Below are positions 13,189 through 42,762 of a DNA stretch of 64,000 nucleotides, piece by piece. Every line of letters starts with the position of its first letter. The stretch's first letter is position 1. The notes beneath the pieces are model-generated. The model was given only the letters and a program-made list of their open reading frames with translations, was not told the DNA's origin and searched no databases. Source of the stretch: an uncultured Myxococcales bacterium (GTDB lineage Bacteria > Myxococcota > UBA727 > CAYLZW01). The DNA is taken from positions 225 through 64,224 of the forward strand of contig CAYLZW010000002.1 in NCBI GenBank assembly GCA_964388085.1. Reading direction: 5' to 3'. The position numbers and the translations under genes are program-made.

Positions 13189-13202
13189 CTCGAGGTGATG
13201 CC

Positions 13203-13709
13203 ATGCCGGAGACCGGGAACTTGCGCTGGGAGGTCGAGAACGACGCGGACGGCGCCGCGCGGCTGGTGCTGAGCGGAGACATCGACGACCACGTGCGTAT
13301 GGGCGCGGTCGAGCCGCCGGCCGCGAGCAAGCTCGTCGTCGACCTCTCGGGCGTGCGGCGCATCAGCTCCTTCGGGGTAAAGGAGTGGGTGCCCTTCGTG
13401 CGCGGGCTGAAGGCGCGCGGCGGCTCCATCGTCTTCGAGCGCTGCCCGAGCGTCATGGTGCGGCAGTTCAACATGGTGCCGTCGACGCGCGCCGGCGCCG
13501 TCATCAAGAGCGTTTTTTTGCCCTACTTCTGCGACGACTGTGACGACGAGCGGAACGACTTCCTGCTCGAGGTGAGCGGCGACGAGCCGCCCTTCGAGCC
13601 GCCCGCGCGCGCCTGCCCCGAGTGCGGCGCCGAGCTCGAGTTCGACGACGTACCCGAGTCCTACTTCGGCTTCTGGACGCAGCGAGACGAGCTCATCGAC
13701 GAGGACTGA
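13203..13709 (+). CDS. Standalone STAS (anti-sigma-factor-antagonist-like) domain + C4 zinc-ribbon protein
   Basis: VVDLSGVRRISSFGVKEWV...IVFERCPSVMVRQFNMV aligns to SpoIIAA DLSFMDSSGLGVI...MVVCAISPAVKRLFDMS, with the conserved phospho-acceptor position (SS). Followed by FCDDCDDE...CPECGAEL. Overlaps the stop of the giant kinase. Paralog of 42763..43254 and of the kinase A/B/C N-termini. Confidence 0.75.
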   Translation: MPETGNLRWEVENDADGAARLVLSGDIDDHVRMGAVEPPAASKLVVDLSGVRRISSFGVKEWVPFVRGLKARGGSIVFERCPSVMVRQFNMVPSTRAGAVIKSVFLPYFCDDCDDERNDFLLEVSGDEPPFEPPARACPECGAELEFDDVPESYFGFWTQRDELIDED

Positions 13710-18084: not shown

Positions 18085-19369
18085 GCGCCACGGAGAACAC
18101 GCGCTCGAGCTCGTCGCCGTAGAGCTGCTTCAGGATGACCGCCGTGGGCGGCAGCTTCGGCGGATCGCGACCGAGCGCCGCGTACAGGCGTCGCTCCGCG
18201 CCCTCGATGTAGTGACCGACCCGCTGCGCCATGGCGCCGTGCACGAGCGCGCGATCCAGCACCACGGCGGCGACGTCGTCGGGGAGATCAGCCCGAGGGG
18301 CCAGACGTCTGCCTGTGAGTGCGGCGAGCTCCTCCCGCGGGCGCGTCCAGTCGTCGGCGATGGCCCCCGCGACCTGCACCGCGCCGTCGTGCGGCAGCCC
18401 CTCGAGATCGGGCACCACGACGCCCAGCACGCCGCTCATCACCGTCCGCTCGTCGTCATCGAGCTCGTTCACCGCCTGATCGAGGAGCGTCGCCGGCATG
18501 GCCTCGTGCGCGGCGCCGATCGCCTCCGTGAGCGCGGCCGGCACGTCCTCGCGCTCCCAGGTGGCGCGCGCGAGGTCGTCGAGGATCAGCCGGCGCGCGT
18601 TGCGCAGCAGGTACTGCACGACGATGAAGTTGTACGTCCCGTAGGCATAGCTGCGGAACGCGTCGAGGTCCGGCAGCACGCGCGCCACCTCGGCCGCGGT
18701 CACGTCGGCGTCGAAGTCGCCCTCGCCCGCGCCGAGCAGGAACGCAGCCAGCGCCTCCGAGAACATATGCCTTGGACCGGCGCAGACCTGCTCCGGCCCG
18801 ATCAAGAGCCCGGACCCATCCGCTTCTTCCCACACGCGCTCGGGCGTGACGGGCGGTCCCTCGTCGCCGCCCATCTCCGCGAGCAGCGCGTCGACGTTCA
18901 GCATGCTGGTGACGGGGTTGAAGCCGAGCACGAGCTTGAAGGCGGAGCCCACCACGGGGGGCACCGGATGGTCGCCGAGGGCCGGCTCTCGTCGTCGCCA
19001 CAAGAACCACGGCACCATGGTGATGAGCTGGCCGACGCACTGCGCGTCCCGGTAGCGCAGCTCGCTGACGCCGGTGTCCTCGAGGTACAGCGTCCGGAAG
19101 TAGCGAACGTAGGAGAGCAGCTCCTTCCAGTGCTTCGTCATTTGTCGAAGCGCCGAGACGTTCATGGGGTTCTCGTGCCCCTGGCGCGAGTCCTCGTACG
19201 GGCAGCGGCGCAGCTCCATCTCGAAGCCCGGCGCGCGACTCTCAGGCGGCACGCGCCACTCCCCGAGGTGGCGGCCTTCGCCGTCGAGCAGCAGGTGCAA
19301 GCGTGCTTGGGCGATGAGCCCGTGCTCGACGACGAGCTCTGCGTCGGGCGAAGGGATGGCATCAGACAT
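18059..19369 (-). CDS. Hypothetical protein, paralog of 19362..20552 (conserved RCPYxxSR...HExPMNxSAL N-terminal motif)
   Basis: Start taken at MSDAIPSPD (M60 of the ORF-track frame). ~40% identity to the upstream paralog by eye. 8-nt overlap with the upstream gene's stop. Confidence 0.6.
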   Translation of the reverse strand: MSDAIPSPDAELVVEHGLIAQARLHLLLDGEGRHLGEWRVPPESRAPGFEMELRRCPYEDSRQGHENPMNVSALRQMTKHWKELLSYVRYFRTLYLEDTGVSELRYRDAQCVGQLITMVPWFLWRRREPALGDHPVPPVVGSAFKLVLGFNPVTSMLNVDALLAEMGGDEGPPVTPERVWEEADGSGLLIGPEQVCAGPRHMFSEALAAFLLGAGEGDFDADVTAAEVARVLPDLDAFRSYAYGTYNFIVVQYLLRNARRLILDDLARATWEREDVPAALTEAIGAAHEAMPATLLDQAVNELDDDERTVMSGVLGVVVPDLEGLPHDGAVQVAGAIADDWTRPREELAALTGRRLAPRADLPDDVAAVVLDRALVHGAMAQRVGHYIEGAERRLYAALGRDPPKLPPTAVILKQLYGDELERVFSVALTGADPES

Positions 19370-20552
19370 CGGGCACCTCTCGAGAGACGCGGGAGAAGTA
19401 GCGCGCCAGCGCGTCACCAAACAACTCGTGAGCCAAGGCAACCGGATCCTTCGGGTCGCGCGCCAGCGCCTCTCTGCCGAGCGCCGCGCGGACGGCGTCT
19501 TCGCAGCGTAACGCACCCTCCCCCACGAGCACCTCGAGGCGCTCATGGAGCGCAGCGCGATCCGGCACGGCGCGCTTGGCGTGCTCGCGAAAGGCGGCGG
19601 CCATGTCGTCGAGGGTCCGCCGCGCGGCGGCGCCGCTCGGGCTCAGCATGGCGGACAGCGCCTGCAGCATGTCTGCGCGCTCATCGTCGTCGAGCGCCGA
19701 GAACGGCTCCGTCCAATCGCTCGCCGGGGCCGCCTCCTCGAGCGCGCGCTTCGTCTCGGGGGCGTCCGGCCCTGCCGCCAGCAGGTCCTCGACGAGGAGG
19801 CGCCTCACGACGACGAAGCAGAAGCGCAGCACGGTGAAGTCGATGCTGGCGTGCACGTAGCGCGCGAACACCTGGCTGTCCGGCAGCCATCCCCGCACGC
19901 GGGAGACGACGTCGGCCGGCACCGCGGGGCCCACGATGAGGGCGCCGGCGAAGTCTTCGATGAGCTTCGGCGGCCCGGCGCACACCTCGTTCGGCCCGAT
20001 GAGGGCACCGGACTGCTCCGCCTCGTCGTGGATCGACGCGCCGGTGAGCGGCGGCGCGCTCTCGAGCTCGCCCGCCATCTCGTACAGCAGCTCGTTCAGC
20101 GACATCCGCTGCACGACGTCGTCGATGCCGCGCATAAGCTTGAAGGTCACCGCCGCGAGCGGATCGAGGGCGCCGCTCTCGACCGGTGCCTGCGCGCGGC
20201 GCGTGAGGAACCAGGGCAGCAGCTTCATGTGCTGGATGACGTGCCACACCTCGAAGAAGCGCGCGGGGGCGTGGCCGAGCGCAGCGCTGTGCAGGGAGTG
20301 GAAGTAGCCCACGAGCCCCAACACGTCGCTCCAGCGCTGCGTCATTTGCGTCAGCGCCGACGCGTTCATGGGGTGCTCGTGATGATGCCGCGAGCCCGTG
20401 TAGGGGCAGCGCTTCAAGACCATCTCGGCGCCGCCCGCCGGCTCGTCGAGGACCGCCCGCTCGCCGAGCGCTCGCCCCTCGCGATCGCGCAGGGCGAAGA
20501 TGCGCTCGCGAGGCACGTGCAGCACGAAGAGCTCACGGGGAGACGGGGACAC
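19362..20552 (-). CDS. Hypothetical protein, paralog of 18059..19369
   Basis: Shares the motif LKRCPYTGSRHHHEHPMNASALTQMT. Divergently transcribed from the HlyD-like gene (~90-nt intergenic). Confidence 0.6.
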   Translation of the reverse strand: MSPSPRELFVLHVPRERIFALRDREGRALGERAVLDEPAGGAEMVLKRCPYTGSRHHHEHPMNASALTQMTQRWSDVLGLVGYFHSLHSAALGHAPARFFEVWHVIQHMKLLPWFLTRRAQAPVESGALDPLAAVTFKLMRGIDDVVQRMSLNELLYEMAGELESAPPLTGASIHDEAEQSGALIGPNEVCAGPPKLIEDFAGALIVGPAVPADVVSRVRGWLPDSQVFARYVHASIDFTVLRFCFVVVRRLLVEDLLAAGPDAPETKRALEEAAPASDWTEPFSALDDDERADMLQALSAMLSPSGAAARRTLDDMAAAFREHAKRAVPDRAALHERLEVLVGEGALRCEDAVRAALGREALARDPKDPVALAHELFGDALARYFSRVSREVPDV

Positions 20553-20644: not shown

Positions 20645-22594
20645 GTGCACGAAAGCAGCGAGGGCGACGGTCCTTGCGCTATTCTGCCCACCGGCCGTTG
20701 TCAGAAATCCTCAGCGGCCTCCTCGACGTGCATCGGTGGGACGTTGGCCACGCAGTTCCCGAAGCTACGCTCCGACTTGATCGTCCAGCGCCTCGACGAG
20801 GGCAGCCGCGTGGTGTTCGCGGTGTCGACCCCGGACGGCGCGGTCGACCAGCGCTTCAGCGAGCGGGTCTACTTCGCGATCCATGCGCTCCGGGGGGTGA
20901 ACGACGCCGGCAGCTGGCTCGCCGCAGTGCGTCAGCGCGATCCCTCGCTCACCATCGGGCAGCTGCAAAAGCTCCTCGACAAGGTGCAGGCGATGGGGCT
21001 CCTCGAGGTCACGGACCCTCGCGCGCGCGCCCCCGCTCCGCCGCCAGCGGCGGTGCACTATGTCGCTCCCCAGCCGGAGGGCGGCGGGGAGGACGACTTC
21101 GGCGAGCGCACCGTCGTCGCCGCCGTCTACAGCGATCCGTCCGTCTCGCTCGAGGCCGAGCCTCGCTTCGTCACGACACCGGTGACCGCGCCCATCGCGC
21201 CCTTCCAAGCGCCGCCCTCGGTGCCGTCCGCGCCGCCGCAGAGCGACCTCGATCGTCGCTACCTGCAGGCCGGGCTCGAGCACTTTCGCGCGGGCGCGCT
21301 CGACGAAGCCGAGCGCTACCTCCACGCCGCGCTCGAGACGAACCCGTCGAACGCCGAGGCCGGCAGCCTCTTGCAGATGGTCCGTGACGCGAAGGCCGGC
21401 CGCGGCCCTTTGAGCCGCGACGACATGCCCCCCGTCGAGGCGACGAACGAGCCGGTGCCGAGCGAAGGCGAGGAGCCCGCCGGCGAGGCGGTGGACGAAG
21501 GTGGCGCGGCTGCCTACGAGGACGCGGCGCTGCAGGCAGAGTCACAGGCGGACGCCACACGTCGACGTTGGGCTTGGCGCGCCAAGATCTTCGGGCGCCT
21601 GGTCGCGCTGCCTGCCGCCATCATCGTCGCGCTCGCGTTCATCCCCTACCCGCTCAGCATCACGTATCCGTGCGCGGTCAAGCCGCTGCAGCAGGACACC
21701 GTGCGCGCTCCACGAGACGGCGTCATCGCCGCCATCACCGTCGACGAAGGCGCGCGCGTCACGAAGGGCCAGGAGATCGGCAACCTGCACAACGCCGCGA
21801 CGCGCACCGCGGTGGTCAAGAGCCGCGCGGCCGTCGAGAAGGCGAAGGCCGAGCTGCAGGCGCTCAAGGAGGGCAACCGCGCCGAGGAGATTCAGGCGGC
21901 GCGCGCGCGTGTGAACGGCCTCTATCGCGAGCTCAGCGTCGCCAAGGACCGGGTCCGCCGCGTGCGCGGGCTGGTCAAGCAAGGCATCGCCCCGCGCGGC
22001 GAGCTCGAGACCGCGCGCGCACAGGAGGCGGCCATCTCCGGCCAGCTCTCGCAAGCCAACGCGGACCTGAAGCTCGTGCAGGCCGGCGCGCGCGACGACG
22101 AGCTGGTGAAGAAGGAGGCCGAGATCAAGAGCCTGCAGGCGCAGCTCGAGCTCGACGAGGCGAACCTCGAAGGCACCGTGTTGCGCTCCTCCATGGACGG
22201 CCTCGTGACGACGCTGAAGCCGCGCGACCTCGTCAGCACGCGCGTGGTCGCCGGCCAGCCCGTGCTCGAGATCGCCGTGCTCGACGAGATGCTCGCCGAG
22301 GTGCTCGTCAACGAGCGCGACTTCGACGTGCTGAAGCCCGGGCTGCCGATCGAGATCAAGGTCGCGGCCTACCCCGGCGCCGTGTTCCAGGGGAAGGTGG
22401 AGCGCATCGCGCAGCAGGTCGAGATCATCGACGGGCAGACCATCATCCGCGTCGAGGGCGCCATCAAGAACCAGGACGGGCTGCTCGTGCCCAACATGAC
22501 GGGCTTCGCGCAGATCGAAGCGGAGGAGATCCCCATCTTGAAGCTGCTGACGCGCCGCGCGATCCGCTGGATCCGCGTCCGCTTCCTCATCTGA
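20645..22594 (+). CDS. HlyD-family periplasmic adaptor (membrane fusion protein) with long cytoplasmic N-terminal extension
   Basis: Single TM (LVALPAAIIVALAFIPY) at ~aa 320, then a biotinyl/lipoyl-like hairpin plus coiled coil (KAELQALKEG...LKLVQAG) and a beta-barrel region typical of HlyD. The N-terminal 300 aa are unusual for HlyD. Start uncertain. Confidence 0.75.
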   Translation: MHESSEGDGPCAILPTGRCQKSSAASSTCIGGTLATQFPKLRSDLIVQRLDEGSRVVFAVSTPDGAVDQRFSERVYFAIHALRGVNDAGSWLAAVRQRDPSLTIGQLQKLLDKVQAMGLLEVTDPRARAPAPPPAAVHYVAPQPEGGGEDDFGERTVVAAVYSDPSVSLEAEPRFVTTPVTAPIAPFQAPPSVPSAPPQSDLDRRYLQAGLEHFRAGALDEAERYLHAALETNPSNAEAGSLLQMVRDAKAGRGPLSRDDMPPVEATNEPVPSEGEEPAGEAVDEGGAAAYEDAALQAESQADATRRRWAWRAKIFGRLVALPAAIIVALAFIPYPLSITYPCAVKPLQQDTVRAPRDGVIAAITVDEGARVTKGQEIGNLHNAATRTAVVKSRAAVEKAKAELQALKEGNRAEEIQAARARVNGLYRELSVAKDRVRRVRGLVKQGIAPRGELETARAQEAAISGQLSQANADLKLVQAGARDDELVKKEAEIKSLQAQLELDEANLEGTVLRSSMDGLVTTLKPRDLVSTRVVAGQPVLEIAVLDEMLAEVLVNERDFDVLKPGLPIEIKVAAYPGAVFQGKVERIAQQVEIIDGQTIIRVEGAIKNQDGLLVPNMTGFAQIEAEEIPILKLLTRRAIRWIRVRFLI

Positions 22595-22612: not shown

Positions 22613-25165
22613 GTGACCGTCGAACGACCGCTGGGACGCGACGACCTCGAGATCGCTCCTCGCATGGTGAACGGCGAGCTCACCTACTTCGTCGCGGATC
22701 CGCTGAAGAACGAATACCAGCAGCTCGAGGAGCTCCAGTACGAGGTGTTCCGCCGGCTCGACGGCCAGCGCAGCATCGACGACATCTGTAAGGAGCTGTA
22801 CGACACCTACGAGCTCGAGGTGGACGCACAAGAGCTCGCCGAGTTCATCGACAACCTCGGTGAGCTCAACCTGCTCGACATCACGAGCGACGAGCGCGTC
22901 GACACCAAAGACGGCCTCGACCTCGCGAAGAAGGTGAAGAAGTTCCTCGAGCGCGAAGGCGTCGCCTACAGAGGACGGGGCGTCGCCAGCCGCGCACCGC
23001 ACGGTCGCGAGCGGCGCGGCAACCAGCGCGACGCGCAAGCCATCGACCGCGCGCTCGAGCACCTCGACCGGGGTGAGATCCGTCCCTGCGCCATCGTGCT
23101 CCGTCAGCTGCTGACGACGAGCCCGAGCAATTGGCGGGCGCGCTATCTGCTTCAGGCCCTACAGAAGGCAAACGTCGGCGGCCTGCGCAACATCGACAAC
23201 GCGTGGTGGTGGCGGGTGCCGCTCACGAACCCGGATCGCTGGCTCGGGCGCCTCGAGCGCGTGCTGCGGCCGTTCGTGTTCAACCGCCTGTTCCTGCCCG
23301 CGTTCCTGCTGCTGTTCGCGTTCGCCTGGGTCCTCGTCGGCTACCAATGGGAGCGCCTCGAGCAGGACCTGCGCCACATGATGCGCTTCGGCTGGATGCT
23401 CGAGTACCCGCTGTTCTTCCCGCTCTTCTTCCTCTCCGTCACGCTGTCGATGGCGCTGCACGAGCTCGCCCACGGCGTGACGTGCAAACACTTCGGCGGC
23501 CACGTCCGGGAGATGGGGCTGCTGTTCGCCTACGGCAGCCCCGCCGCCTATTGCGACATCTCCGCGACCTATCTCTTCGAGAACCGCTGGCATCGTGTCG
23601 CGGTGCCCGTCGCCGGCCCCATCTTCACGCTCGCGTACTGGGCGCTCACCGTCGTCGTCTACTCGCTGGTGGAGTCGAACAGCGCCCTCGGCGTCTATTG
23701 CGTGGTGTCGATCCCGCTCATCATGGTCGAGAGCATGGGGGCGATGCTCAACCCGCTGGTGAAGAACGACACCTATTACGCCCTCACCGACGCCCTCGAC
23801 TATCCGAACCTGCGCGATGACGCCTTTCAGTATCTGCAGGCGCGCGTCGAGGGCTGGCTCGTCGCGCAGCACATCGAGATGCCGGAGGAGATGGAGGCGC
23901 GACGCGGCACGCTGCTCGGCTACGCGATCCCCGGCACCCTGTTCACGGGCGTCGTCATCATCGCGATGCTGTACACGTTCGCCCAGATCCTGGTTCGCGA
24001 GCTGCACACGCTGGGGCTCATCCTGAGCGTCGCGTTGTTCTGGTACACCGTCGCCCGCCCCGTCCGTCGTTGGTTCGGGAGCTTGTGGCAGCGACGGGCG
24101 CTGTTCTGGCAGTCACGCCGCTTCAAGCGCATTGTCACGGCGACGGGGACGGCGCTCGTGTTGGCGCTCATCGCCCCGTGGCCGCTACGCATCGAAGGCC
24201 CTTGCACCGTGACCCCCGAGATCAAGAAGGTGCGCGCGCCGCGAAGCGACATCATCGTCGAGGTGCTCGCCCAGGAAGGGGAGCATGTCGCGGAGGGGCA
24301 GCCCCTGCTCCGGCTGCGATCGGAAGAGCAGGTCGCCGCGCTGATCCACGCGGAGGCCGAGCTCGAGACCGGCGAGCTCGAGCTGGCGCGCCTGGTCACC
24401 GGTATGCGCAGCGAAGAACGCGGCGTGCTCGTCGCCCAGGTCACGAGCGGGCGGCGCTCGCTACGCGCCGCGGCAGCTCGCGTTCACCGCCTGCGCAGCC
24501 TCGTCGGTCGGGGGCTCGCCTCCCGCGCGGCCCTCGAGGAGGCGCTCGCCGCCGAGGCCGCCGCGCGCACGGACGCCTCGTCGGCGTCCATGAAGCTGCG
24601 CGCGAAGGCCGCGGCGGCGTCGTCGAGCGACCTGATGATCGCGCAGTCGCAGGTCGAGCTGCTCATCGCGCAGCGCGACGCGGCCCGCCGGGAGCTCGAG
24701 CAGTCGCTCGTGCGCAGCCCCGCCGACGGCTATGTCCTCTCGGTCCCAGGCACTCCCGCCAGCGAGCTCGTCGGCTCGCACCTCGAGGCGGGCACCGAGC
24801 TGCTGCGCGTGCGCACCGGCGGCCCGGTCCGCTTGTCCGTCGAGATCCCCGTCACCGAGCCCATCTCGTCGCTGACGCCCGGCGCCAAGGTGGAGGCGCG
24901 CCTGCTCGGCTTCCCCTCCCTCGCCATCGCGGGCACGCTCGAACGCGTGAGCCGATCGTTCGCGGAGGCGTCGCAGAACGACACCGGCATCTCGGTCTTG
25001 CCGGCCGACGTGCTCCTCGACGAGGAGAGCGTAGCGCCGGGGACGCTCGCCGCGGGCCTGAGCGGGCGCGTGAGCATGCGCGCCGGCTGGCATCCGGTCG
25101 CTTGGCACATCTATTTGCGTGTCGCGCGGCTCATCCAGATCGACGCGAGCCGCCTGCTCGGCTGA
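22613..25165 (+). CDS. Tripartite fusion: PqqD-like (RRE) domain + M50-like membrane zinc protease + HlyD-like adaptor
   Basis: GTG start with AAGGAGG RBS. The N-terminus DDLEIAPRMVNGELTYFVADPLKNEYQQLEELQYEVFRRLDGQRSIDDI is PqqD/RRE-like. HELAHGV (HExxH) sits within a multi-TM region. C-terminal hairpin/coiled-coil HlyD-like region (EAELETGELELARL...). Confidence 0.8.
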   Translation: MTVERPLGRDDLEIAPRMVNGELTYFVADPLKNEYQQLEELQYEVFRRLDGQRSIDDICKELYDTYELEVDAQELAEFIDNLGELNLLDITSDERVDTKDGLDLAKKVKKFLEREGVAYRGRGVASRAPHGRERRGNQRDAQAIDRALEHLDRGEIRPCAIVLRQLLTTSPSNWRARYLLQALQKANVGGLRNIDNAWWWRVPLTNPDRWLGRLERVLRPFVFNRLFLPAFLLLFAFAWVLVGYQWERLEQDLRHMMRFGWMLEYPLFFPLFFLSVTLSMALHELAHGVTCKHFGGHVREMGLLFAYGSPAAYCDISATYLFENRWHRVAVPVAGPIFTLAYWALTVVVYSLVESNSALGVYCVVSIPLIMVESMGAMLNPLVKNDTYYALTDALDYPNLRDDAFQYLQARVEGWLVAQHIEMPEEMEARRGTLLGYAIPGTLFTGVVIIAMLYTFAQILVRELHTLGLILSVALFWYTVARPVRRWFGSLWQRRALFWQSRRFKRIVTATGTALVLALIAPWPLRIEGPCTVTPEIKKVRAPRSDIIVEVLAQEGEHVAEGQPLLRLRSEEQVAALIHAEAELETGELELARLVTGMRSEERGVLVAQVTSGRRSLRAAAARVHRLRSLVGRGLASRAALEEALAAEAAARTDASSASMKLRAKAAAASSSDLMIAQSQVELLIAQRDAARRELEQSLVRSPADGYVLSVPGTPASELVGSHLEAGTELLRVRTGGPVRLSVEIPVTEPISSLTPGAKVEARLLGFPSLAIAGTLERVSRSFAEASQNDTGISVLPADVLLDEESVAPGTLAAGLSGRVSMRAGWHPVAWHIYLRVARLIQIDASRLLG

Positions 25166-25182: not shown

Positions 25183-27531
25183 TCACGCGTTCGCGTGCGG
25201 ATCGCGATTGCGCTCCCCCGGTGGCAGACACGGGCGCCCCGCGCGCGCCGCGACCTCGTCGAGGCGAGACGTCGCCAGCCGCCGGCTCTGGCGTCCCGGC
25301 GTGAGCTCCACCAGCCCGGGCACGAGCACCTTGCAGACGCGGAAGCCGATCTCCGCGATCTCGTCGGACACGAGGTCGAACGCGAAGGCCTCGAGGTCGC
25401 GCTCCTCCAGCGCGGCGAGGATGTGCTCGACGTCAGTCCTCGGATCGACGCCGCCGACGGGCGCGATGTCGTCGAGCGCGACGGTGTCGTCGGCGACGAG
25501 AAACGAGAGCTTCGCCGCGTTGGCTGGGTTCAAGTAGTAGAGGTACGTCGGGAACCAGGTGCGCCAGCCCTGCTCCACGTCTTCGGGATCATAAGGCGTA
25601 TTGCGCCAGTCCTTGGCGGGGTCGGGCGTCATGCCGAGGGTCTCGTAGTGCAACGCCAGCTCGCACAGCCCTCGCGAGAGCGCGGCTCGTGGGTCCAGAT
25701 CGGCGGTGGCGACGACGACCATCCCGCCCGCGTCGAAGTTTCCGCGCCGCTCGCGCATGCGACCGAGGGTCAAGAAGGCCGGCAGATCGAAGTCGATGCG
25801 CAGATCGAGGACCACGACGTCCATGCCCGCGGCGTCGACGAAGCGCAGCAGCTCATCCGCATAGGCGTCGGGCAGCGTCGGCGGGAGCCGCACTCGCCGC
25901 AACGCCATGCGTTTGTACCACGCGATGACGTACTGATCGCGCTCGATGACCTCGCGCAGACCGTTCAGCAACGCGCGACGATAGGACACGTGCGACGCGC
26001 CGCCCGTCGTCAGGTTCTGATCGACGACGCGGTTTGGGTACGTGTCGTCGGTGAGGCACGGCGTCACGAGCTCTTGCGGGAACAGCTTCGCTTCGCCTGT
26101 CTTCAGCGAGCATCCCCAGGTCCAGTTGAGCGGGTGGTCGTCCGAGAAGCGGGGGCGCGGAAAGCCCGGCGTGCGGTATTGCTCCTCCTCGTAAAGGATC
26201 AGGCCGCGCGGATCGAAGGCGTGCCCGGCGACGTCTCGGTACGGCACGCCGACGAGATAAGGGCGGTGCGTGTACTGCGCGTAGCGCTCTATCCCCTCGC
26301 TCATCGACACGAGGCGTCGATGCTGCAGCGTCGGGCCCGTGCCGTTGATGCCCTGAAACCCCGTGGAGATGTGCTCTCGGCCGCGGGCGAGCGCGACGCC
26401 CCCCCAGCACAGCGGGAAGCGGCGGAAATAGTGCGCGCGCTCGCTCCACTCCTCGGCGTACTTGAAGATGCCCGTGGCCGGGTCGTTGTAATCCAGCATC
26501 AGGCGGTCGTCGGGCACGTCAACGTCGACGTCATCGCGCAGGATTGCGCGCCAACGCTCGGCATAAGCGCGCGCCGCGTCGTCGAGGGGCGCCGCGCTCG
26601 CCCCCGTGAAGGCCTTGACGCTCGGTCCGCACGCCGGGCAGTGCGCGTGGCGGATGACGCGATGTGCGGTCACCAGCCCGGTGCGATGGCAGACGCGCAC
26701 GGCGGCGTCGCGGCGTCCGGCGAACGCGCCGTCATCGTCGACGGCGGAGAGAAACCCCAGCAGCGCCGCGGCGACGCGCTGCGCTCGACCATCGACGGTG
26801 CGCGCCGCGAAGCGCACGACCGGCTCCCGTTCCGCCGCGTCCCACAGCTCGACCTGATGCCAATGCACACGCGCCATGACGCGCAGCGCGAGACAGGTCG
26901 AGCACGGCGTCGCCGACGGGCGCAGCGGCCCGATGAACGTCTCGTCGGCCATGAGCACGACGGGAACGAAGCTGAGCCCCAGCTCGAGCGCAGCGGCCTC
27001 TAGCTGGTCGCGCCTGCGATCGTGCACGGTCTGAAAGCAGGCGACCACGAGACATCCCCGCGCACGCGCGAGGTCGCTCGGGTGCGCGCTCGCCAGGACG
27101 GTGACGTCGATGCCGGCCGCTCGCAGCGCCTCCGCGACCGAAGGCGTGGTCGCGTCGTCACCGAGGAGGAGCGCCCCCTTCGCGAGCGCGGCCGCGACGC
27201 GCGTGCTCGCGAAGTCGAGTGAGACCGCGGAGGCCCGCTCGACGGCGCCCTCCGCCAGGAGGAGATCGAGGACCTCTCCGACGTCGTCCTCCCCGAGCCC
27301 GCTCGCCTCCGCCAGCTCCCGGAGCGTCTTCGGCTGCTCGAGGCCGCGCAGCACCGCGCCGACCGGTCCGTCTGCGTCCGCGTCGATCTCCCGCACCATC
27401 TCGCGGTCCGACACCGCGATGCGCCCACTTCGGGAGAAGCACGTGACAGAGCTGACGAGTTGGTAGCGCGCCTCGGCCGGAGCTTCGTTGGGGGCGCGCG
27501 CGTCGGCGGGAGCCACTTCGTCGTGCGACAT
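25183..27531 (-). CDS. Fused E1-like (ThiF/MoeB-type, with CxxC) / YcaO-domain protein (RiPP-type cyclodehydratase or thioamidase)
   Basis: YcaO motifs GTGPTLQHRRLVSMSEGIERYAQ (SEAIERY-like), WGGVALARGREHISTGFQGIN and a proline-rich C-terminal region. The N-terminal half is Rossmann-like with HCPACG. Most N-terminal ~80 aa are helix-turn-helix/RRE-like. Confidence 0.85.
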   Translation of the reverse strand: MSHDEVAPADARAPNEAPAEARYQLVSSVTCFSRSGRIAVSDREMVREIDADADGPVGAVLRGLEQPKTLRELAEASGLGEDDVGEVLDLLLAEGAVERASAVSLDFASTRVAAALAKGALLLGDDATTPSVAEALRAAGIDVTVLASAHPSDLARARGCLVVACFQTVHDRRRDQLEAAALELGLSFVPVVLMADETFIGPLRPSATPCSTCLALRVMARVHWHQVELWDAAEREPVVRFAARTVDGRAQRVAAALLGFLSAVDDDGAFAGRRDAAVRVCHRTGLVTAHRVIRHAHCPACGPSVKAFTGASAAPLDDAARAYAERWRAILRDDVDVDVPDDRLMLDYNDPATGIFKYAEEWSERAHYFRRFPLCWGGVALARGREHISTGFQGINGTGPTLQHRRLVSMSEGIERYAQYTHRPYLVGVPYRDVAGHAFDPRGLILYEEEQYRTPGFPRPRFSDDHPLNWTWGCSLKTGEAKLFPQELVTPCLTDDTYPNRVVDQNLTTGGASHVSYRRALLNGLREVIERDQYVIAWYKRMALRRVRLPPTLPDAYADELLRFVDAAGMDVVVLDLRIDFDLPAFLTLGRMRERRGNFDAGGMVVVATADLDPRAALSRGLCELALHYETLGMTPDPAKDWRNTPYDPEDVEQGWRTWFPTYLYYLNPANAAKLSFLVADDTVALDDIAPVGGVDPRTDVEHILAALEERDLEAFAFDLVSDEIAEIGFRVCKVLVPGLVELTPGRQSRRLATSRLDEVAARAGRPCLPPGERNRDPHANA

Positions 27532-27653
27532 TCTCTCTCGACGAGCTCGTCGCTCGCGCTCGCAGGGCGGCGATCGCGGGAGCAGACGAGGAAGAAGGTG
27601 GAGGGGCGCTCGCGCTATCCCGCCTTACGGTGGGCCGCTAACAGAACCGATGA

Positions 27654-27773
27654 TCAGGTGTACCCAATCACCGGGCTCGACCCACGCGCTTTCATGGGGG
27701 CCGTCTTCTTCTCGAGCGTCTTGACCTTGAGGTTCAACTTCTTCTTCTCAGGAGCCTGAAGCTTCGCGTCCAT
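27654..27773 (-). CDS. Candidate small ORF (39 aa, Lys-rich: MDAKLQAPEKKKLNLKVKTLEKKTAPMKARGSSPVIGYT)
   Basis: 33/38 codons end in G/C, consistent with genuine coding. AAGAGG lies 6 nt upstream of the ATG. Located in an AT-richer 470-nt divergent region, same strand as and ~120 nt upstream of the YcaO gene. Confidence 0.35.
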   Translation of the reverse strand: MDAKLQAPEKKKLNLKVKTLEKKTAPMKARGSSPVIGYT

Positions 27774-27998: not shown

Positions 27999-30329
27999 GT
28001 GACCATCGAACCCTCTCCGCAACAGACCGGACGCTTCTCGTCGTCGGGCCTGTCGCTCGCGTACGAGGTCCACGGTGACGCGCCGCTCACGCTCGTGTTC
28101 TTGCCCGGCGTGGGCTTCTCCCGAGTGTGCTTTCGGCCCATCGCTCGCTACCTCGCCCGACATGTGCGCTGTGTCCTCGTGGACGCGCGGGGCACCGGCG
28201 AGTCCGAGGCACCCGAGGGGGACGACGCCTACGCGCTCGCGCGGCAGTCGGACGACGTCATCGCCTTGCTCGACCACCTCGAGATCGAGCGTGTCGTCAT
28301 CGTTGGGCACTCCTTCGGCGCCAACGTCGGCGTGGATGTCGCGCTGCGTGCGCCGTCGCGCGTGCAAGGGATCGCGCTGCTCTCGGTCGCGCTCGCCGCT
28401 GAGCTCATCGACGCGGCGCTGCAGGTCGCCGGTGACGATCCCGACCGATTGAAGGTGGACGTCCCGGCGGCGCTCGCGCCTGCCATGCGCCAGTGGCCCG
28501 CGCCGGGGGACGCGCTGTGGGGGCGCGAGGGACACCACCGCCTGACCGGCAAGATGCGCGAGATCGATCAGCGCGACAAGGTCGCGACGCTGCCGATGCC
28601 CTGGCTCGCGCTCGTCGGTGCGCGCGACCCCATCTCGGCTACGTCGCTGCCGCTGCTGCGGGACCTGCTGCCGCCGGCGCGCTGCCTGCTGCTCGACGAG
28701 GCGGGTCATCATCCACACATCGAGGCCCCCGAGCGCAGCGCGGACGAGATCGCGCGCTTCCTTCAGCAAGCGGTGCTCACGCCGCCCGCGTCCGCCACGC
28801 CGCCGCTGCGCGTGACGGTCACGCTCGTCGAGCAGGAGGACGGTGTCGTCGTCGATGACCAGCTCACCGGCTTCTCCTTCGCGCTCGGCGAGAGCGAGGC
28901 CGCCATCCTGCGCGGGCTCGGCGGCGCGCTGCCCGAGCTGGCGCGCGCCGTGGACGTCGCGGAAGACGACGTCGCGAGCTTCATCGAACAGCTCCGCGCG
29001 CTCGGGCTCCTCTCGGAGGGCCTCTCGGCGGCCGAGATCGAAGGGCGCCAGGCGATGGCGCGCCGCGCGTCGCGGGACGAAGAGCGCTTCGAGGCCGTCC
29101 TGAACGCGATTCGCTTCGCCTTCGATCGCGTCTCGCTGCACCGACAACGGATGAGCGCCGCGGGCGTCACGCCCGACGACCTCGCTGAAGAGTCGGACCT
29201 CGGCCGCATCCCGCCCATGACCAAGGACGTGCTGCGGGCACATTTCCCCGATGGGCTCGTGCCCGACGGCGTCGACGTCGCCTCCCTGCTGCGGGACGGC
29301 AAGATCGTCGTCGGCGCCACCAGCGGAAGCACCGCCGAGCGCCTGCAGGTGCTCTTCGACGCGTCCGCCGGCGGGCTGCCGGAGGCGTCGCACTCTCTCT
29401 GGGGCCTCGACGACGACGTGGAGCTGAGCTCAGGCGCGGTGTTCACGAGCCCCATCTGCGCGGGCTTCGAATGTCACCTCGGCATGACGTCCAAGGCGGC
29501 GCGGACCCGCGGCTCGACGCTCACGCTCAACTCTTGCGACGATCCCTTCGCCATCAGCGACGAGGAGGTGCGCGCCATCGCCGCGGAGATGCGCGAGTAC
29601 CAGCCGCGCGTGCTGTTCGTGAACCCCTGGTACGCCGTCGTGCTGTTGCGACGGGTCCGCGCGCTCGCGCTCACGCTGCCGGACGTCGACGTCGTGCTGG
29701 CGAGCTATCAGTACCTGACCCGCCGTCATCGCCAGCTTTTGCGCCAAGGCTTCCGCGCGCCGGTGTTCTCCTATTACGGAGCGACGGACCTCGGCGGCGC
29801 GCTCATCGGGGTCGAGTGTCACCGTGGATCCATGCATGTGCGGGAGGACCACGTGCACCTCGAGATCGAAGCGCTCGGCGGGGATGACGACAGCCTCGGC
29901 TGGGTCACCGTCACGACGCTGTCGAGCCCGCACATGCCGCTCGTGCGCTATCGCGTCGGCGACCTCGCTCGTCCGACGCCGGAGCCCTGCCCTTGCGAGC
30001 AGGGGGGCGAGTGGCGCTCCTTCATCCTCGAGGGCCGCGCGCGAGACACCCTGCAGAGCACAGGCCGGCGGACCGTCACCACCCGCATGATCGACGACGC
30101 CATCGGTGAGGACGGCCCCGACTTCTATCGCCTCGTGCAAGAGGGCGGCGACCGCTTTCGCCTCGAGACGCTGAGCGGCGCCGATGAAGCGCACGCCATC
30201 GGCGCCGCGCTCTCGCGCTTGCCGCGCGTGCTGGGAGAGGGCGCGCGTATTCGCGCCGTCACGGTGAAGCAGTTCTCCCCCGAGCGCTCGCTCAAGTTCC
30301 GCCAGACCGTGCGCGAGGACTCGGCATGA
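27999..30329 (+). CDS. Alpha/beta-hydrolase domain fused to PaaK/CoF390-synthetase-like adenylate-forming domain
   Basis: N-terminus LVFLPGVGFSRV...VIVGHSFGANVG (GxSxG nucleophile elbow). C-terminal half has the phenylacetate-CoA-ligase-like layout (GATSGSTAERL...YYGATDLGG...VRYRVGDL). GTG start. Confidence 0.75.
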   Translation: MTIEPSPQQTGRFSSSGLSLAYEVHGDAPLTLVFLPGVGFSRVCFRPIARYLARHVRCVLVDARGTGESEAPEGDDAYALARQSDDVIALLDHLEIERVVIVGHSFGANVGVDVALRAPSRVQGIALLSVALAAELIDAALQVAGDDPDRLKVDVPAALAPAMRQWPAPGDALWGREGHHRLTGKMREIDQRDKVATLPMPWLALVGARDPISATSLPLLRDLLPPARCLLLDEAGHHPHIEAPERSADEIARFLQQAVLTPPASATPPLRVTVTLVEQEDGVVVDDQLTGFSFALGESEAAILRGLGGALPELARAVDVAEDDVASFIEQLRALGLLSEGLSAAEIEGRQAMARRASRDEERFEAVLNAIRFAFDRVSLHRQRMSAAGVTPDDLAEESDLGRIPPMTKDVLRAHFPDGLVPDGVDVASLLRDGKIVVGATSGSTAERLQVLFDASAGGLPEASHSLWGLDDDVELSSGAVFTSPICAGFECHLGMTSKAARTRGSTLTLNSCDDPFAISDEEVRAIAAEMREYQPRVLFVNPWYAVVLLRRVRALALTLPDVDVVLASYQYLTRRHRQLLRQGFRAPVFSYYGATDLGGALIGVECHRGSMHVREDHVHLEIEALGGDDDSLGWVTVTTLSSPHMPLVRYRVGDLARPTPEPCPCEQGGEWRSFILEGRARDTLQSTGRRTVTTRMIDDAIGEDGPDFYRLVQEGGDRFRLETLSGADEAHAIGAALSRLPRVLGEGARIRAVTVKQFSPERSLKFRQTVREDSA

Positions 30330-31546
30330 GCGAGCCCCTCGACGTCGCCCGCGTACGCAGCGACTTCCCGTTGCTCGCGCGCGAGGTGCACGGACGCCCC
30401 GTCGTCTATCTCGACAACGCCGCGACCACGCCGAAGCCGCGCGTCGTGCTCGAGGCGATGCGCCGCTACGACGAGGACATCAGCGCGAACATCCACCGGG
30501 GCAAGCACCTGCTGTCCGAGGAGGCCTCCGAGCTGTTCGAGGACGCGCGTCGCAAGGTCGCGCGTTTTCTGAACGCGGCGCCCTCCGAGGTGGTGTTCAC
30601 GCACAACACGACGCACTCGTTAAACCTCGTCGCGCTCGGCTCTCGCCTCGACGGAAGCGCCAACGTGGTCACGACCGTGCAGGAGCACCACTCGGTGCTG
30701 ATGCCGTTTCTGCAGCGAACCAATGTGCGCTTCGTCCCGGTCGGCAAGGATGGCCGCGTCGATCCACAGCGGGTCTTCGACCAGGTCGACGACGACACGG
30801 CGCTCATCGCCGTGGCCTGGGCGTCGAACGCCACCGGCGCCGTCCAGCCCATCGCGGAGATCACGCGGCGCGCGAGGGAGAAGGGCATCCCGACCCTGGT
30901 CGACGGCGCGCAGGCGGTCCCGCACCTGCCCGTCGATGTCGACGCGCTCGGTTGCGACTTCCTCGCCTTCTCTGGTCACAAAATGCTGGGCCCGACGGGC
31001 GTCGGCGTCCTTTGGGGCAAGCGAGACCGCCTCGAGGCGCTCGGCTCCCCCCTCCCCGGAGGCGGCTCACCGCGGCTCGTCACGCCGAGCGGCTTTACCC
31101 TGAAGCCCGTGCCCCACCGGCTCGAGGCAGGCACCCCCGCCATCTCGCAGGTCATCGGCCTCGGCGCTGCCGTCGACTACCTGCAGTCCTTTCCGCCGGA
31201 GTCTCTGCTGGCGCATGAGCGAGCGCTCGCCGAGCGGCTGACGCGCGGCCTGCAGGACATCCCCGGCGTGGAGCTTCTCGGCCCGCCGGCCGGCGAGGAG
31301 CGGCTCGCGCTGGCGTCATTGGTCCTGCACTCGCAATCGCTGAGCGGCGACCACGTGGCCATGATCCTGAGCGACACGAAGTCCATCCTCGTGCGCTCGG
31401 GCCATCACTGCTGTCACCCGTACTTCGACTCGTTCGGCGCCAACGGCGCGGTGCGTGCGTCGGCTTATCTCTACAACACCCTCGAGGACATCGACGCGTT
31501 CACCGACGCCTTCCGCGAGATCGTTTCCCGCCTCTACGCTTCTTGA
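30326..31546 (+). CDS. Class V aminotransferase-fold cysteine desulfurase (SufS/CsdA-like)
   Basis: LDNAATTPKP, SGHKMLGPTGVGVL (PLP-lysine), HHCCHPY... with RxGHHCA-like persulfide cysteine region. Start overlaps the stop of the upstream gene (ATGA). Confidence 0.85.
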   Translation: MSEPLDVARVRSDFPLLAREVHGRPVVYLDNAATTPKPRVVLEAMRRYDEDISANIHRGKHLLSEEASELFEDARRKVARFLNAAPSEVVFTHNTTHSLNLVALGSRLDGSANVVTTVQEHHSVLMPFLQRTNVRFVPVGKDGRVDPQRVFDQVDDDTALIAVAWASNATGAVQPIAEITRRAREKGIPTLVDGAQAVPHLPVDVDALGCDFLAFSGHKMLGPTGVGVLWGKRDRLEALGSPLPGGGSPRLVTPSGFTLKPVPHRLEAGTPAISQVIGLGAAVDYLQSFPPESLLAHERALAERLTRGLQDIPGVELLGPPAGEERLALASLVLHSQSLSGDHVAMILSDTKSILVRSGHHCCHPYFDSFGANGAVRASAYLYNTLEDIDAFTDAFREIVSRLYAS

Positions 31547-33377
31547 CGCTCGCGGCCGGCGGCTTGTCGTCGGTGGCGTCCGCGGCGTCGACATCCGCGC
31601 CGTCGGGCTCCTCGTCGTCGTCTTCCTCGTCCGCTTTCGCGGAGTCCTCGGCGTCGGTGTCGTCGGCGCCGGAGTCCGCCCCGTCGGCCTCGCTCGCCGT
31701 CTTCGCGTCGCTCGACGCACTCCCGACGGACGGGGTCGCGGGTTGAAACAGCGCGGCGTGCTCGGGCGAGAGCTGGCCGAGCTCCGCGCGCAGCTCGAGC
31801 GCGGTGCGCATGGCCTGATACTGCGCCTCGACCTCTTGCAGCTCCGCCTGCGTCACCAACACCTGGGCTTGCAGCAGGTCGAACACCGTCGAGCGTCCCC
31901 CGCGGAGCTTCCGGCCCTCGGCGTCGAGCGCGACGGCCGCGAGCCGCTTGGCCTCGGCGGCGGCGCCGAGCACGGTTCCGCGCTGCTCGACGTCGTTCAG
32001 CAGCCGCGCGATGCGGTTGTCGATCATGGCCTCCGTCGCGGTGCGCTCGAAGCGCAGGGCCTCCACCTCGTGACGACGTGCCGTCTCGCGATTCCCTTCC
32101 GTCCCCGGCCACAGCGGGGTGGAGCCGCTGACGACGACGCCGACGCTCCAGGAGCGCCCGACGTTGAGCAGCGCCTTCTCGTAGCCGCCGTGCAGCGCTG
32201 GGTCGACGAGGCAGGGACCCAGCTGATTCGGCAGCGTGCCTCCGTGGCAACGCGACTCGCCCGCGAGACCACCGACGCTCCCCTCGAGCCCGACGCTGAG
32301 CTCGGGGAGGCCATCGAGCGCCACCGCCTCGCGCTCCGTCTCTGCGCGCGCGATCTCCGCGTCGAGGGCGAGGAGCGCGGGGCTGCGCTCCCTCGCGCGC
32401 GCTTTGGCCGCGTCTCTCGCGACGCCGGGAGCGCGCCAGGGGTTGAGCGGCGCGACCTCTACAGACGCTGCGTCCATGGGGACGCGCAGCTCCTCGACGA
32501 GGCGCCCGAGCGCCGCTTCGCGATCCGCCACCGCCGCGGACAGCTCGACGTTCCGCTGCGCGACCGTCTGCTCGGCGATGGCGAGCTCGAGCCGGGAGAG
32601 CTGTCCACCGTCGATGAGCTGCTGGGTCAGGCGCTGGAAGCTCTCGGCGAGCTTCACGGCGCTTGCGCGTAGGGCGACCACGCGCGCCGCGCGCGCAGCG
32701 TCGAGCCAGGTGCCCGCGATGCGGCGATACAGCGCGTCTCGCCTCGCTGCGGCGGCCGCGTTCATCACGGTGACGCGCGCGTCCGCCGTGCGGATCGCCG
32801 CCATGGTACGGGACGGCCACAGCCCGAGCAGGAGAGGCTGCTCGACGCGCAGTCGTAAGCGAGGCTCGTAGCGAGGGGCCAGGGCCGCGCCGACGTCTTC
32901 GGTGAAGAGCGCGTCGTTGTCGAGGCGGAGCTGGTAGGTGGTCCCTGTCGGCAACAGGCCGAGCACTCCGGCGCCCGCGGTGACGCCTTGTGTGTCGACG
33001 CGTCCGTCGGGGTACAGATACGAGATGACCGGCCCGACGCTCGGCTGCGCGTCGTGGACGACGCCGCCGTCGATCACGAGGCGGGGAATGAAGATGGACC
33101 ACTCCGCGGCCGCGGCGGCCTCGCTCGCCTTGACGCGCTCGGCCGCCGCGCGCAGCTCCGGATGCTGCTCGTCGACGAGGCGCAGCGCGTCCGCGAGCGT
33201 CAACGTCCGCACCGGCGCGGGGGCGCCAGGCGACGCCTGCCCTCCTGTTGGTTCCGCTGCCGGCGTCGCTGCCGGCGTCGGCTCGGCCGCCTCTGCTGTC
33301 GCTACGGTGAACAGCGCCGCCACGAGGATCGCTCGAGCGCGGCGGGACACTATCGATTCACTTCGCAACGGCGGCAT
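31500..33377 (-). CDS. TolC-family outer membrane efflux protein with acidic/basic low-complexity C-terminal tail
   Basis: Signal peptide RARAILVAALFTVATAEA, then LTLADALRLVDEQHPELRAAAERV and repeated coiled-coil/beta segments typical of OMF. The 3' end overlaps the sufS-like 3' end by ~46 nt (convergent). Confidence 0.8.
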   Translation of the reverse strand: MPPLRSESIVSRRARAILVAALFTVATAEAAEPTPAATPAAEPTGGQASPGAPAPVRTLTLADALRLVDEQHPELRAAAERVKASEAAAAAEWSIFIPRLVIDGGVVHDAQPSVGPVISYLYPDGRVDTQGVTAGAGVLGLLPTGTTYQLRLDNDALFTEDVGAALAPRYEPRLRLRVEQPLLLGLWPSRTMAAIRTADARVTVMNAAAAARRDALYRRIAGTWLDAARAARVVALRASAVKLAESFQRLTQQLIDGGQLSRLELAIAEQTVAQRNVELSAAVADREAALGRLVEELRVPMDAASVEVAPLNPWRAPGVARDAAKARARERSPALLALDAEIARAETEREAVALDGLPELSVGLEGSVGGLAGESRCHGGTLPNQLGPCLVDPALHGGYEKALLNVGRSWSVGVVVSGSTPLWPGTEGNRETARRHEVEALRFERTATEAMIDNRIARLLNDVEQRGTVLGAAAEAKRLAAVALDAEGRKLRGGRSTVFDLLQAQVLVTQAELQEVEAQYQAMRTALELRAELGQLSPEHAALFQPATPSVGSASSDAKTASEADGADSGADDTDAEDSAKADEEDDDEEPDGADVDAADATDDKPPAASVKKRRGGKRSRGRRR

Positions 33378-42760: not shown

Positions 42761-42762
42761 CG

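Follow-up and report, generated by a model that had tools for sequence, protein, structure and literature searches.

A YcaO fusion enzyme linked to a cysteine desulfurase and an adenylating enzyme of the PaaK fold: a candidate sulfur-coupled RiPP pathway in Myxococcota-like bacteria

YcaO enzymes that form thioamides normally need a thiocarboxylated carrier protein together with TfuA, and for the Escherichia coli YcaO the route by which sulfur arrives has been stated as an open question (PMC13063428). Two precedents from other enzymes bear on this question: adenylation followed by persulfide transfer is the established route to the thiocarboxylates of ThiS and MoaD, and adenylating enzymes fused to a RiPP recognition element (RRE) act on the C-termini of peptides that are made by ribosomes and modified after translation (RiPPs), as in MccB and IndF (PMC12596934). 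Here we describe a 64,000-nucleotide stretch of DNA from an uncultured Myxococcales bacterium (positions 225 to 64,224 of contig CAYLZW010000002.1, assembly GCA_964388085.1), referred to below as the window, in which an RRE/E1-like/YcaO fusion enzyme is encoded with a short peptide, an adenylating enzyme and a SufS-type cysteine desulfurase. The YcaO of the window is most likely the amide-activating enzyme of a previously undescribed RiPP pathway in Myxococcota-like bacteria. We put the probability that this pathway as a whole is coupled to sulfur at about 0.5. Its product would probably be a short exported peptide with a sulfur-modified C-terminal tail, carrying first a thiocarboxylate and then a thioamide or a thia-heterocycle. 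No description of this YcaO/adenylating enzyme/SufS system was found in the literature.

The fusion enzyme is a protein of 782 residues with an ATG start, encoded at positions 25183-27531 on the (-) strand. The window is about 70% GC, and a filter on the GC content of codon positions (0.88 at the third position) indicates a real gene. Profile matches in Pfam, NCBIfam and the PDB agree, at exactly these coordinates, with the three-part fusion proposed in a first-pass annotation made from the sequence alone. The YcaO domain (residues 396-740) is complete, aligning with positions 1-324 of the 325 in the Pfam profile PF02624 (E=5e-54), and includes the SEGIERYAQ segment (residues 411-419) by which it had been recognized, so the motifs are confirmed by profile search. 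Within the ExxER (412-416) and ExxERD (527-532) motifs, all of the 17 family members compared have E412, E415, R416, E527, E530, R531 and D532, which also align with TruD. Judged by these ATP/Mg motifs, the YcaO in the window is catalytically intact. The E1-like domain (about residues 105-330) exceeds the cutoff of NCBIfam TIGR03882, the E1-like 'TOMM precursor leader peptide-binding' model (46.6 bits against 36.9, residues 188-320). It contains the HCPACG segment noted in the first-pass annotation (297-302) and a partner, PCSTC (209-213), which together supply four zinc cysteines, C210, C213, C298 and C301, all invariant in the 17 members. No glycine-rich ATP loop was seen on reading the sequence, so this domain probably serves peptide binding only. 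A weak match of the family profile to MccB in the PDB search also bears on it.

Searched against the PDB, the 17-sequence family profile aligns with cyanobactin heterocyclases over their full length: with TruD at E=2e-66 (profile positions 40-748 on residues 37-780), with LynD at E=7e-62 (3-747 on residues 3-773) and with MusD (7u58) at E=2e-53. Thus, the order RRE, E1-like, YcaO is that of these enzymes. An alignment that begins at residue 3 of LynD and residue 37 of TruD also gives profile-level support to the RRE-like region suspected at the N-terminus, which we place at about residues 20-100. In an otherwise poor AlphaFold model of the fusion enzyme, calculated from a three-sequence alignment (mean predicted local distance difference test score, pLDDT, 36), residues 20-100 alone are moderately confident (pLDDT 55-84) and form beta-strands followed by three helices. 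At the other end of the protein, the C-terminus had been called proline-rich. Prolines are indeed present (LPPGERNRDPHANA), but the canonical PxPxP, a C-terminal feature of azoline-forming YcaOs, is degenerate. The window protein ends in NRDPHANA, the family consensus in NPDPHPNA, and distant members in NPMPHPLS or NPLPHPLG.

MusD, one of the three closest solved relatives, is reportedly an ATP-dependent peptidase, and its closeness raises the question whether the YcaO domain mainly trims the precursor peptide. We consider this very improbable. The locus already encodes a dedicated RRE-M50 protease, and the precursor, described below, has no follower after its conserved tail.

By hidden Markov model (HMM) score the fusion enzyme is closest to the SagD family, TIGR03604, with 203.9 bits, slightly below the trusted cutoff of 219.25, which is therefore not reached. 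The E. coli-type model TIGR00702 gives 43.3 bits against a cutoff of 75.65, and the McrA-thioamidation model 55.5 bits against 365. The first-pass annotation had named a grouping with housekeeping, S12-associated YcaO as the outcome that would overturn its call. The scores point away from such a grouping, and the S12 notion is itself dated, as the E. coli enzyme is now reported to thioamidate the ribosomal protein uL16 (PMC13063428). The subfamily is also rare: an exhaustive HMMER search of 1.84 billion representative proteins returned 37 clusters at E<=1e-30 and 4154 at E<=1e-3. Membership in the housekeeping family was rejected on the TIGR00702 score and this rarity. Where the organism of a related locus has a name, the source is a metagenome-assembled genome of Myxococcota type (Polyangiaceae, Archangiaceae and a 'Deltaproteobacteria bacterium'), a phylum that the window's GC content and numerous Ser/Thr kinases also fit. 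NCBI names one homologue, and only as 'TOMM precursor leader peptide-binding protein', TOMM standing for thiazole/oxazole-modified microcin. PADLOC was run for a possible defence system; it gave no match to the core proteins and only generic kinase matches for a neighbour, and that reading was rejected.

The first-pass annotation reported no obvious precursor. There is, however, a conserved open reading frame (ORF) of 39 codons, MDAKLQAPEKKKLNLKVKTLEKKTAPMKARGSSPVIGYT, at positions 27654-27773 on the (-) strand, 122 bp upstream of the YcaO gene and on the same strand. It lies within the 467 bp that separate the YcaO gene from the divergent hydrolase-adenylating enzyme gene, where the GC content goes down to 55%, and AAGAGG, a Shine-Dalgarno sequence, lies 6 nt ahead of its ATG. 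Three metagenome contigs encode the identical enzyme, and on these an independent gene caller predicts the same ORF. We compared related loci, numbered with an L below, by tblastn with the window proteins and from tables of called genes. Homologues of the small ORF are found in seven other independent loci, adjoining the YcaO gene in L001, L002, L007, L008, L032 and L033, and lying inside the cluster, not beside the YcaO gene, in L034. Their sequences are MDQNNQPKKTLKLQVKKLEPKSAPAKCAASSPIIGAT in L001, MDTNQQQKPKALSLKVKTLEKKTAPKAAMEATGSPVIGYT in L032, and in partial form ...LTLTIQSLESKLAPKMCGTIRSPIIGSS in L033, ...VQLKIKALEAKNTPRWMCGRLGVVADY in L034, ...LDLTIRPVQ...AASVVVVTTA in L002, ...IELSIRTVK...GARVVVVTSY in L007 and ...LDLSIRPLR...KVKVVVVTYA in L008. 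No precursor was found on the fragments of L035 and L037 that were examined, and the five precursors tested gave no match to any model of NCBIfam or Pfam.

Aligned, the eight peptides share an amphipathic, strand-like leader motif, h-x-L-x-[IV]-[KRQ]-x-[LV], and a tail in which positions -5 and -4 are each Val or Ile, position -3 is small and exactly two further residues precede the stop. Each is about 40 residues long, with one short C-terminal core and no follower after the tail, and T, S, Y and A all occur as the last residue. The [VI][VI] pair, the small residue at -3 and the fixed distance to the stop are the only core features that stay invariant in all eight loci with a YcaO; no position is conserved as Cys, Ser or Thr. 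A regular expression for the precursor matches every one of the eight family loci exactly once and has no match in the 418 kb that make up 23 control loci (L009-L031, the other YcaO loci of the genome scan, which have neither the adenylating enzyme nor SufS). Because the expression was derived from its own hits, this result is a check of specificity only. A stem-loop with a 12-bp stem and a T-rich tail overlies the precursor stop codon (positions 27647-27674, (-) strand; minimum free energy -43.2 kcal/mol, z=-2.1); it could conceivably act as an attenuator between the precursor and enzyme genes, for which this is weak evidence. Another peptide with the same leader is encoded in L036, a locus from the window's own sequencing study, at positions 6292-6417 on the (-) strand, and has a two-Cys core (MQNTEKKPQKKLKLQVKVLEKKTATKAAESLCMGNPAVCNI). 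There the precursor is followed by a 362-residue protein of no known family, a methyltransferase and a met-zincin, divergent from an adenylating enzyme and SufS; YcaO is absent from this 8.6-kb contig.

Three proteins of the locus contain a PqqD/RRE-type domain, namely the YcaO fusion, the adenylating enzyme and an M50-HlyD protein, and all three would be expected to bind the leader. The precursor family, these three domains and synteny in eight or more independent loci bear out the earlier call of a RiPP-type locus, and it is very probable that the locus is a RiPP locus with this 39-residue precursor. Suppose instead that the YcaO modifies a housekeeping protein, or that the genes form a sulfur-carrier system beside a spurious small ORF. 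The E. coli YcaO does thioamidate a ribosomal protein, with a sulfur donor that is unknown (PMC13063428), and SufS is a family of primary metabolism. The small ORF, however, is conserved at the amino-acid level in eight loci with a fixed C-terminal register; the locus has three RRE domains, a leader protease/exporter and TolC; TIGR00702 falls short by more than 30 bits; and the family is rare and patchy, unlike a housekeeping one. Such a non-RiPP role is hardly credible.

Divergent from the precursor and YcaO genes, at positions 27999-30329 on the (+) strand, lies a gene for a 776-residue protein, identified from Pfam, NCBIfam, AlphaFold and Foldseek as an alpha/beta-hydrolase fused to a PqqD-like RRE and a PaaK-fold adenylating enzyme. 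The AlphaFold model, calculated from a 33-sequence alignment, is confident (pLDDT 91). The hydrolase part (residues 1-260) has a GHSFG nucleophile elbow and is absent from about half of the homologues. The RRE (about residues 274-334) is a three-strand, three-helix (beta3-alpha3) unit, and a long helix connects it to the PaaK fold (about residues 380-776). Foldseek returns PaaK1 (2y27) as the best match (E=6e-24, TM-score normalized to the target 0.72), followed by related ligases. A profile of the adenylating family, five true PaaKs included, matches PaaK structures at E=1e-75, and 9 of 30 family members give a hit to the Pfam PqqD model (the best at E=5e-5). The ATSGST motif and C607, H613, C664 and C666, whose cysteines and histidine form a zinc site, are common to true PaaKs. 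In 29 of 30 closer family members, the YGYGLFTGG loop of PaaK is replaced by T[ST]PxC[AS]GxEC[HT]LG, a motif that is absent from true PaaKs and has both cysteines in 28 members; in the window protein they are C487 and C492. The PaaK equivalog models score 54-66 bits against cutoffs of 646-700. With these cutoffs unreached and the acyl-pocket loop exchanged for a Cys pair, the protein is by sequence and predicted structure a PaaK-family member in fold, not a phenylacetate-CoA ligase.

The gene that follows (positions 30326-31546, (+) strand) encodes a 406-residue SufS-type (group II) cysteine desulfurase, and its start overlaps the stop of the adenylating enzyme gene as ATGA. The desulfurase keeps the pyridoxal phosphate lysine (SGHKM) and the catalytic cysteine (GHHCC), matches Synechocystis SufS (1t3i) at E=2e-94 and scores 409 bits on TIGR01979 against a cutoff of 475. 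Pfam scans showed no SufE/SufU acceptor gene in the locus. In all eight of the eight loci the YcaO, the adenylating enzyme and the small ORF occur together, the part of the 776-residue protein that co-occurs with YcaO being its C-terminal two-thirds, the adenylating part. SufS is present in six of the eight. It directly follows the adenylating enzyme in five (window, L002, L007, L008 and L034), and in L001 it lies about 8 kb off, within the cluster. The same direct order is seen in L035, where YcaO is present, in L036 and on a JGI contig. L002, L007 and L008 are minimal, with just the genes for precursor, YcaO, adenylating enzyme and SufS, which are co-directional, and the larger loci (window, L001, L033, L034 and L035) add a PqqD-M50-HlyD protein and a second HlyD. 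The adenylating enzyme and the desulfurase, listed in the first-pass annotation merely among the neighbours, are thus the most tightly linked partners of the YcaO, not incidental ones. They also occur elsewhere: a contig of JGI 3300056388 carries an adenylating-enzyme homologue (P0025) and SufS beside a 794-residue Lant_dehydr_N (LanB-like) protein and an HlyD protein. The pair looks like a portable module that serves other RiPP enzymes too. The YcaO of L034 is divergent, is 650 residues long and matches only positions 79-324 of the Pfam YcaO profile; beside it (276-1805, (-) strand) is a 509-residue protein with no Pfam match, which may be a split-off partner domain.

We suggest the following sequence of events. 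The RRE-PaaK-fold enzyme would adenylate the C-terminal carboxylate of the precursor, a target proposed because this is the only carboxylate common to all cores and lies at a fixed distance from the [VI][VI] pair. SufS, translationally coupled to it, would load a persulfide on the Cys pair C487/C492, and this pair would turn the acyl-adenylate into a peptide thiocarboxylate by resolving an acyl-disulfide, following the logic of ThiS/ThiI. The E1-like/YcaO enzyme would then O-phosphorylate one backbone amide of the C-terminal tail at the expense of ATP, with the thiocarboxylate sulfur as the nucleophile that yields a thioamide or a C-terminal thia-heterocycle. Finally, the PqqD-M50-HlyD protein would cut the leader and, with the second HlyD adaptor and TolC, export a product of about 5-13 residues. 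Sulfur chemistry is favoured by the lack of a conserved Ser, Thr or Cys, by the absence of SagB and TfuA and by the linkage to SufS. The parts of this scheme differ in strength. That the adenylating enzyme and SufS are a sulfur-installing module acting on the peptide is somewhat favoured, and that the YcaO step itself consumes this sulfur is more tentative, with odds a little short of even. In one specific form, the C-terminal thiocarboxylate would be the intramolecular nucleophile of the YcaO, with the ring geometry of the Cys-to-thiazoline reaction, or its sulfur would be relayed to a neighbouring amide as a thioamide. The nucleophile variant would give a C-terminal thiazol-5(4H)-one/5-hydroxythiazole with no need of a SagB dehydrogenase. 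This particular chemistry is unlikely.

Activation of the C-terminal carboxylate could serve another end. As in IndF and GrcB, it might lead to macrocyclization through a lactone, lactam or thiolactone, with the YcaO adding azolines, the hydrolase domain assisting cyclization or proofreading, and SufS chemically uninvolved. The combination of an RRE with an adenylation domain parallels MccB, IndF and GrcB (PMC12596934), the PaaK-like ligases NatL2 and AjiA1 pass acyl groups to non-CoA nucleophiles, and a Cys lies upstream of the tail in the cores of L001, L033, L034 and L036. The cores of the window and of L032, however, have no Cys, the acyl-pocket Cys pair has no obvious role in macrocyclization, and SufS adjoins the adenylating enzyme in most loci, with overlapping genes in the window. 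We therefore regard macrocyclization as improbable, well behind the sulfur-coupled scheme.

Several observations weigh against that scheme. To our knowledge, every characterized YcaO with an E1-like partner produces azolines or an amidine, using a side-chain or amine nucleophile, and the known thioamide-forming YcaOs have no E1-like partner. By HMM score the fusion enzyme falls with the azoline-type family, a membership that in itself favours cyclodehydration. Ser or Thr is found within the last three residues of 7 of the 8 cores, so that a plain oxazoline is possible, and the degenerate PxPxP is a further difficulty, one that burdens an azoline pathway as well. Neither L032 nor L033 shows a SufS within 10 kb. 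On the JGI 3300056388 contig the adenylating enzyme and SufS have no YcaO in view and stand beside a LanB-like protein instead, from which the YcaO and sulfur chemistries may be independent. That the adenylating enzyme takes the precursor as its substrate is also something we infer.

These points come together in a canonical linear azoline pathway, in which Ser/Thr (or Cys) residues would become (methyl)oxazolines or thiazolines, and the adenylating enzyme and SufS would carry out a separate tailoring step such as C-terminal thiocarboxylation. The best HMM is of the SagD type (204 bits), the enzyme aligns full-length with TruD, LynD and MusD, Ser stands at position -7 in 4 of the 8 cores, and the occurrence of the adenylating enzyme and SufS beside the LanB-like enzyme suggests that this pair is modular. 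The window core itself offers a Ser-Ser and the C-terminal Thr. What the cores conserve, however, is two beta-branched residues at a constant distance from the C-terminus rather than Ser, Thr or Cys: no position is reserved for a heterocyclizable residue, and the L034 core, which ends in GVVADY, has none in its last nine residues. A dehydrogenase is lacking too. As the first-pass annotation had stated, there is no SagB-like enzyme; Pfam gave no nitroreductase match among 35 scanned ORFs of the window, and none was found among the called genes of the related loci. Assignment to the azole-forming linear azol(in)e-containing peptides (LAP/TOMM) was rejected on the absence of the SagB-type FMN dehydrogenase from the cluster. 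A purely azoline pathway is possible but on balance doubtful, and the decision of the first-pass annotation to leave the product class open between azoline and thioamide was a fitting one. We prefer the sulfur-coupled scheme, in which the adenylating enzyme and SufS supply what the YcaO uses.

The remaining genes of the larger loci are consistent with export of a peptide product. All of the neighbours named in the first-pass annotation hold up against Pfam and NCBIfam: the TPR-HlyD, PqqD-M50-HlyD and TolC proteins as well as the SufS-type desulfurase and the adenylating enzyme. The 850-residue protein at positions 22613-25165, (+) strand, combines an N-terminal PqqD-like RRE, an M50-type intramembrane metalloprotease (HELAH at residue 283, about six transmembrane helices) and a C-terminal periplasmic HlyD adaptor, and is kept in L001, L033, L034 and L035. 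Its best model is daptide_HExxH (NF041824), at 140 bits and E=8e-41, short of the cutoff of 300. Preceding it is a 649-residue protein with a TPR domain, a single transmembrane helix and an HlyD-family periplasmic adaptor (20645-22594, (+) strand), whose gene adjoins the M50-HlyD gene in the same four loci also. A 625-residue TolC-family outer-membrane channel is encoded at positions 31500-33377, (-) strand. It is kept in L001, L032, L034 and L037 and was not seen on the examined stretches of L033 and L035. The conserved gene set contains no ABC transporter. Farther upstream, at positions 14350-18084 on the (+) strand, a 1244-residue met-zincin (DUF4953, HELGH at residue 661) is predicted to be a lipoprotein from its LLSC lipobox. 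Members of its family, about 1220 residues long, adjoin the system in L001, L032, L034, L036, L037 and a JGI contig, and extracellular processing is one possible role.

Regulatory genes surround the cluster. A 1222-residue Ser/Thr kinase with an AAA_16 (STAND) domain (9520-13188, (+) strand) has orthologues of about 1216 residues with 34-54% identity in L001, L032, L033, L034 and L037 and a weaker match, 29%, in L007. An 822-residue GAF-SpoIIE (PP2C) phosphatase (33422-35890, (+) strand) is kept in L001, L032, L034 and L037. From their domains both are probably regulatory. The synteny of both genes with the RiPP genes of these last four loci suggests control by partner switching or phospho-signalling, or that the peptide itself is a signal. 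STAS-domain proteins, a PilZ protein and further Ser/Thr kinases also lie around the cluster, among them 13146-13709 (+), 39313-40401 (-) and 40514-45524 (-). With kinase, phosphatase and STAS neighbours conserved, the product might be a signalling peptide. A gene for an NAD-dependent epimerase/dehydratase (8481-9512, (+) strand) flanks the cluster here and in L001 and L034, and so may encode a tailoring enzyme. Between the met-zincin and HlyD genes are two overlapping ORFs with high GC at third codon positions, hyp495 (18059-19546, (-) strand, 495 residues) and hyp396 (19362-20552, (-) strand, 396 residues). As they have no match in Pfam, NCBIfam or PADLOC and no counterpart in related loci, they were not counted in the system. 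Elsewhere in the window, a 129-residue protein that strongly matches PF07100, the family of Anabaena sensory rhodopsin transducers (E=1e-52; 54763-55152, (+) strand), is encoded downstream of genes for a TPP enzyme, an enolase-superfamily protein and an FAD-oxidase/Fe-S protein. At 58499-62895, (+) strand, there is a trio of PSCyt2/PSD2 (DUF1549/DUF1585), DUF1501 and PSCyt1 cytochrome c genes, of a type common in Planctomycetes.

The locus is a compact, genetically defined candidate answer to how sulfur might be delivered to a YcaO outside the TfuA/ThiS route. If the sulfur relay is real, it would represent TfuA- and ThiS-independent delivery of sulfur and a new RiPP class; if the YcaO makes only oxazolines, the family would still be new, as an ordinary family of linear azoline peptides. 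In either case the locus would add a new precursor family to the RiPP field. The four-gene set of L002, L007 and L008 is a minimal one-direction operon that could be expressed directly. We know of no other PaaK-fold, RRE-fused adenylating enzyme in a RiPP pathway. The PqqD-M50-HlyD fusion is also unusual, as a single protein would recognize the leader, cleave it and carry out export.

Among described systems, the cyanobactin heterocyclases TruD, LynD, PatD and MusD resemble the fusion enzyme in length and in the order of three domains, and their zinc CxxC pairs and YcaO ATP/Mg motifs are common to the window family; identity is only about 25-30%. Their C-terminal PxPxP corresponds to NPDPHPNA in the family. 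The cyanobactin pathway uses PatA/PatG-type proteases, recognition sequences and a multi-cassette precursor. The window locus, in contrast, has a single short core and lacks cyanobactin recognition sequences, and 35 scanned ORFs of the window gave no Pfam family of PatA/PatG-type subtilisin protease or macrocyclase; cyanobactin membership was rejected on these grounds. Cores in the window family also have few or no Cys, and the enzyme is partnered by SufS and an adenylating enzyme with a PaaK fold. The daptides offer a likeness in processing. Their protease, NF041824, is the most similar to the M50/HExxH domain of the 850-residue protein, at a score far below cutoff, but the window protein is fused to PqqD and HlyD and paired with TolC. 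Daptide precursors have an invariant C-terminal Thr and come with an aminotransferase and methyltransferase set; with 140 bits against 300 and a C-terminal residue that varies, daptide membership was rejected. The HlyD adaptors of the window are of the RiPP-export type, like NHLP-type HlyD proteins.

MccB, PaaA, GrcB and IndF, like the 776-residue enzyme, join a leader-binding domain, on the N-terminal side, to an ATP-dependent domain for carboxylate adenylation, which in their case has a RiPP C-terminus or side chain as its target, and the IndA tail, NWYFI, resembles the short conserved tail of the window-family precursors (PMC12596934 for the enzymes). They are E1/ThiF enzymes, whereas the 776-residue enzyme has the ANL/PaaK fold, a Cys pair in the acyl pocket and a coupled SufS, and its family is often fused to an alpha/beta-hydrolase. 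The YcaO-TfuA-ThiS systems of the thioamitides and of McrA thioglycine share with the proposed pathway the ATP-dependent activation of a backbone amide. There, a protein-borne donor made by adenylation and persulfide transfer supplies the sulfur (PMC13063428, PMC12596934); in the window, the YcaO gene is accompanied by genes for an adenylating enzyme and a desulfurase. The window YcaO differs from those enzymes in being E1-fused and of the azoline type by HMM. Pfam gave no TfuA match in the scanned window ORFs, none was found in the related loci, and no ThiS-like gene was found; together with the McrA-type score, these differences led us to reject membership among TfuA-type thioamidases. Since the adenylating enzyme has a PaaK fold and its own RRE, the site of sulfur assembly would be the substrate peptide or the enzyme instead of a carrier protein. 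The proposed chemistry follows the logic of ThiF/ThiS-ThiI-IscS and MoeB/MoaD, where adenylation, persulfide transfer and resolution of an acyl-disulfide by a second cysteine yield a thiocarboxylate (PMC12596934). Compared with these, the adenylating fold is different, the desulfurase is of the SufS type with no SufE/SufU, and the substrate would be a 40-residue precursor, with T, S, Y or A as its last residue, rather than a ubiquitin-fold protein with a terminal GG.

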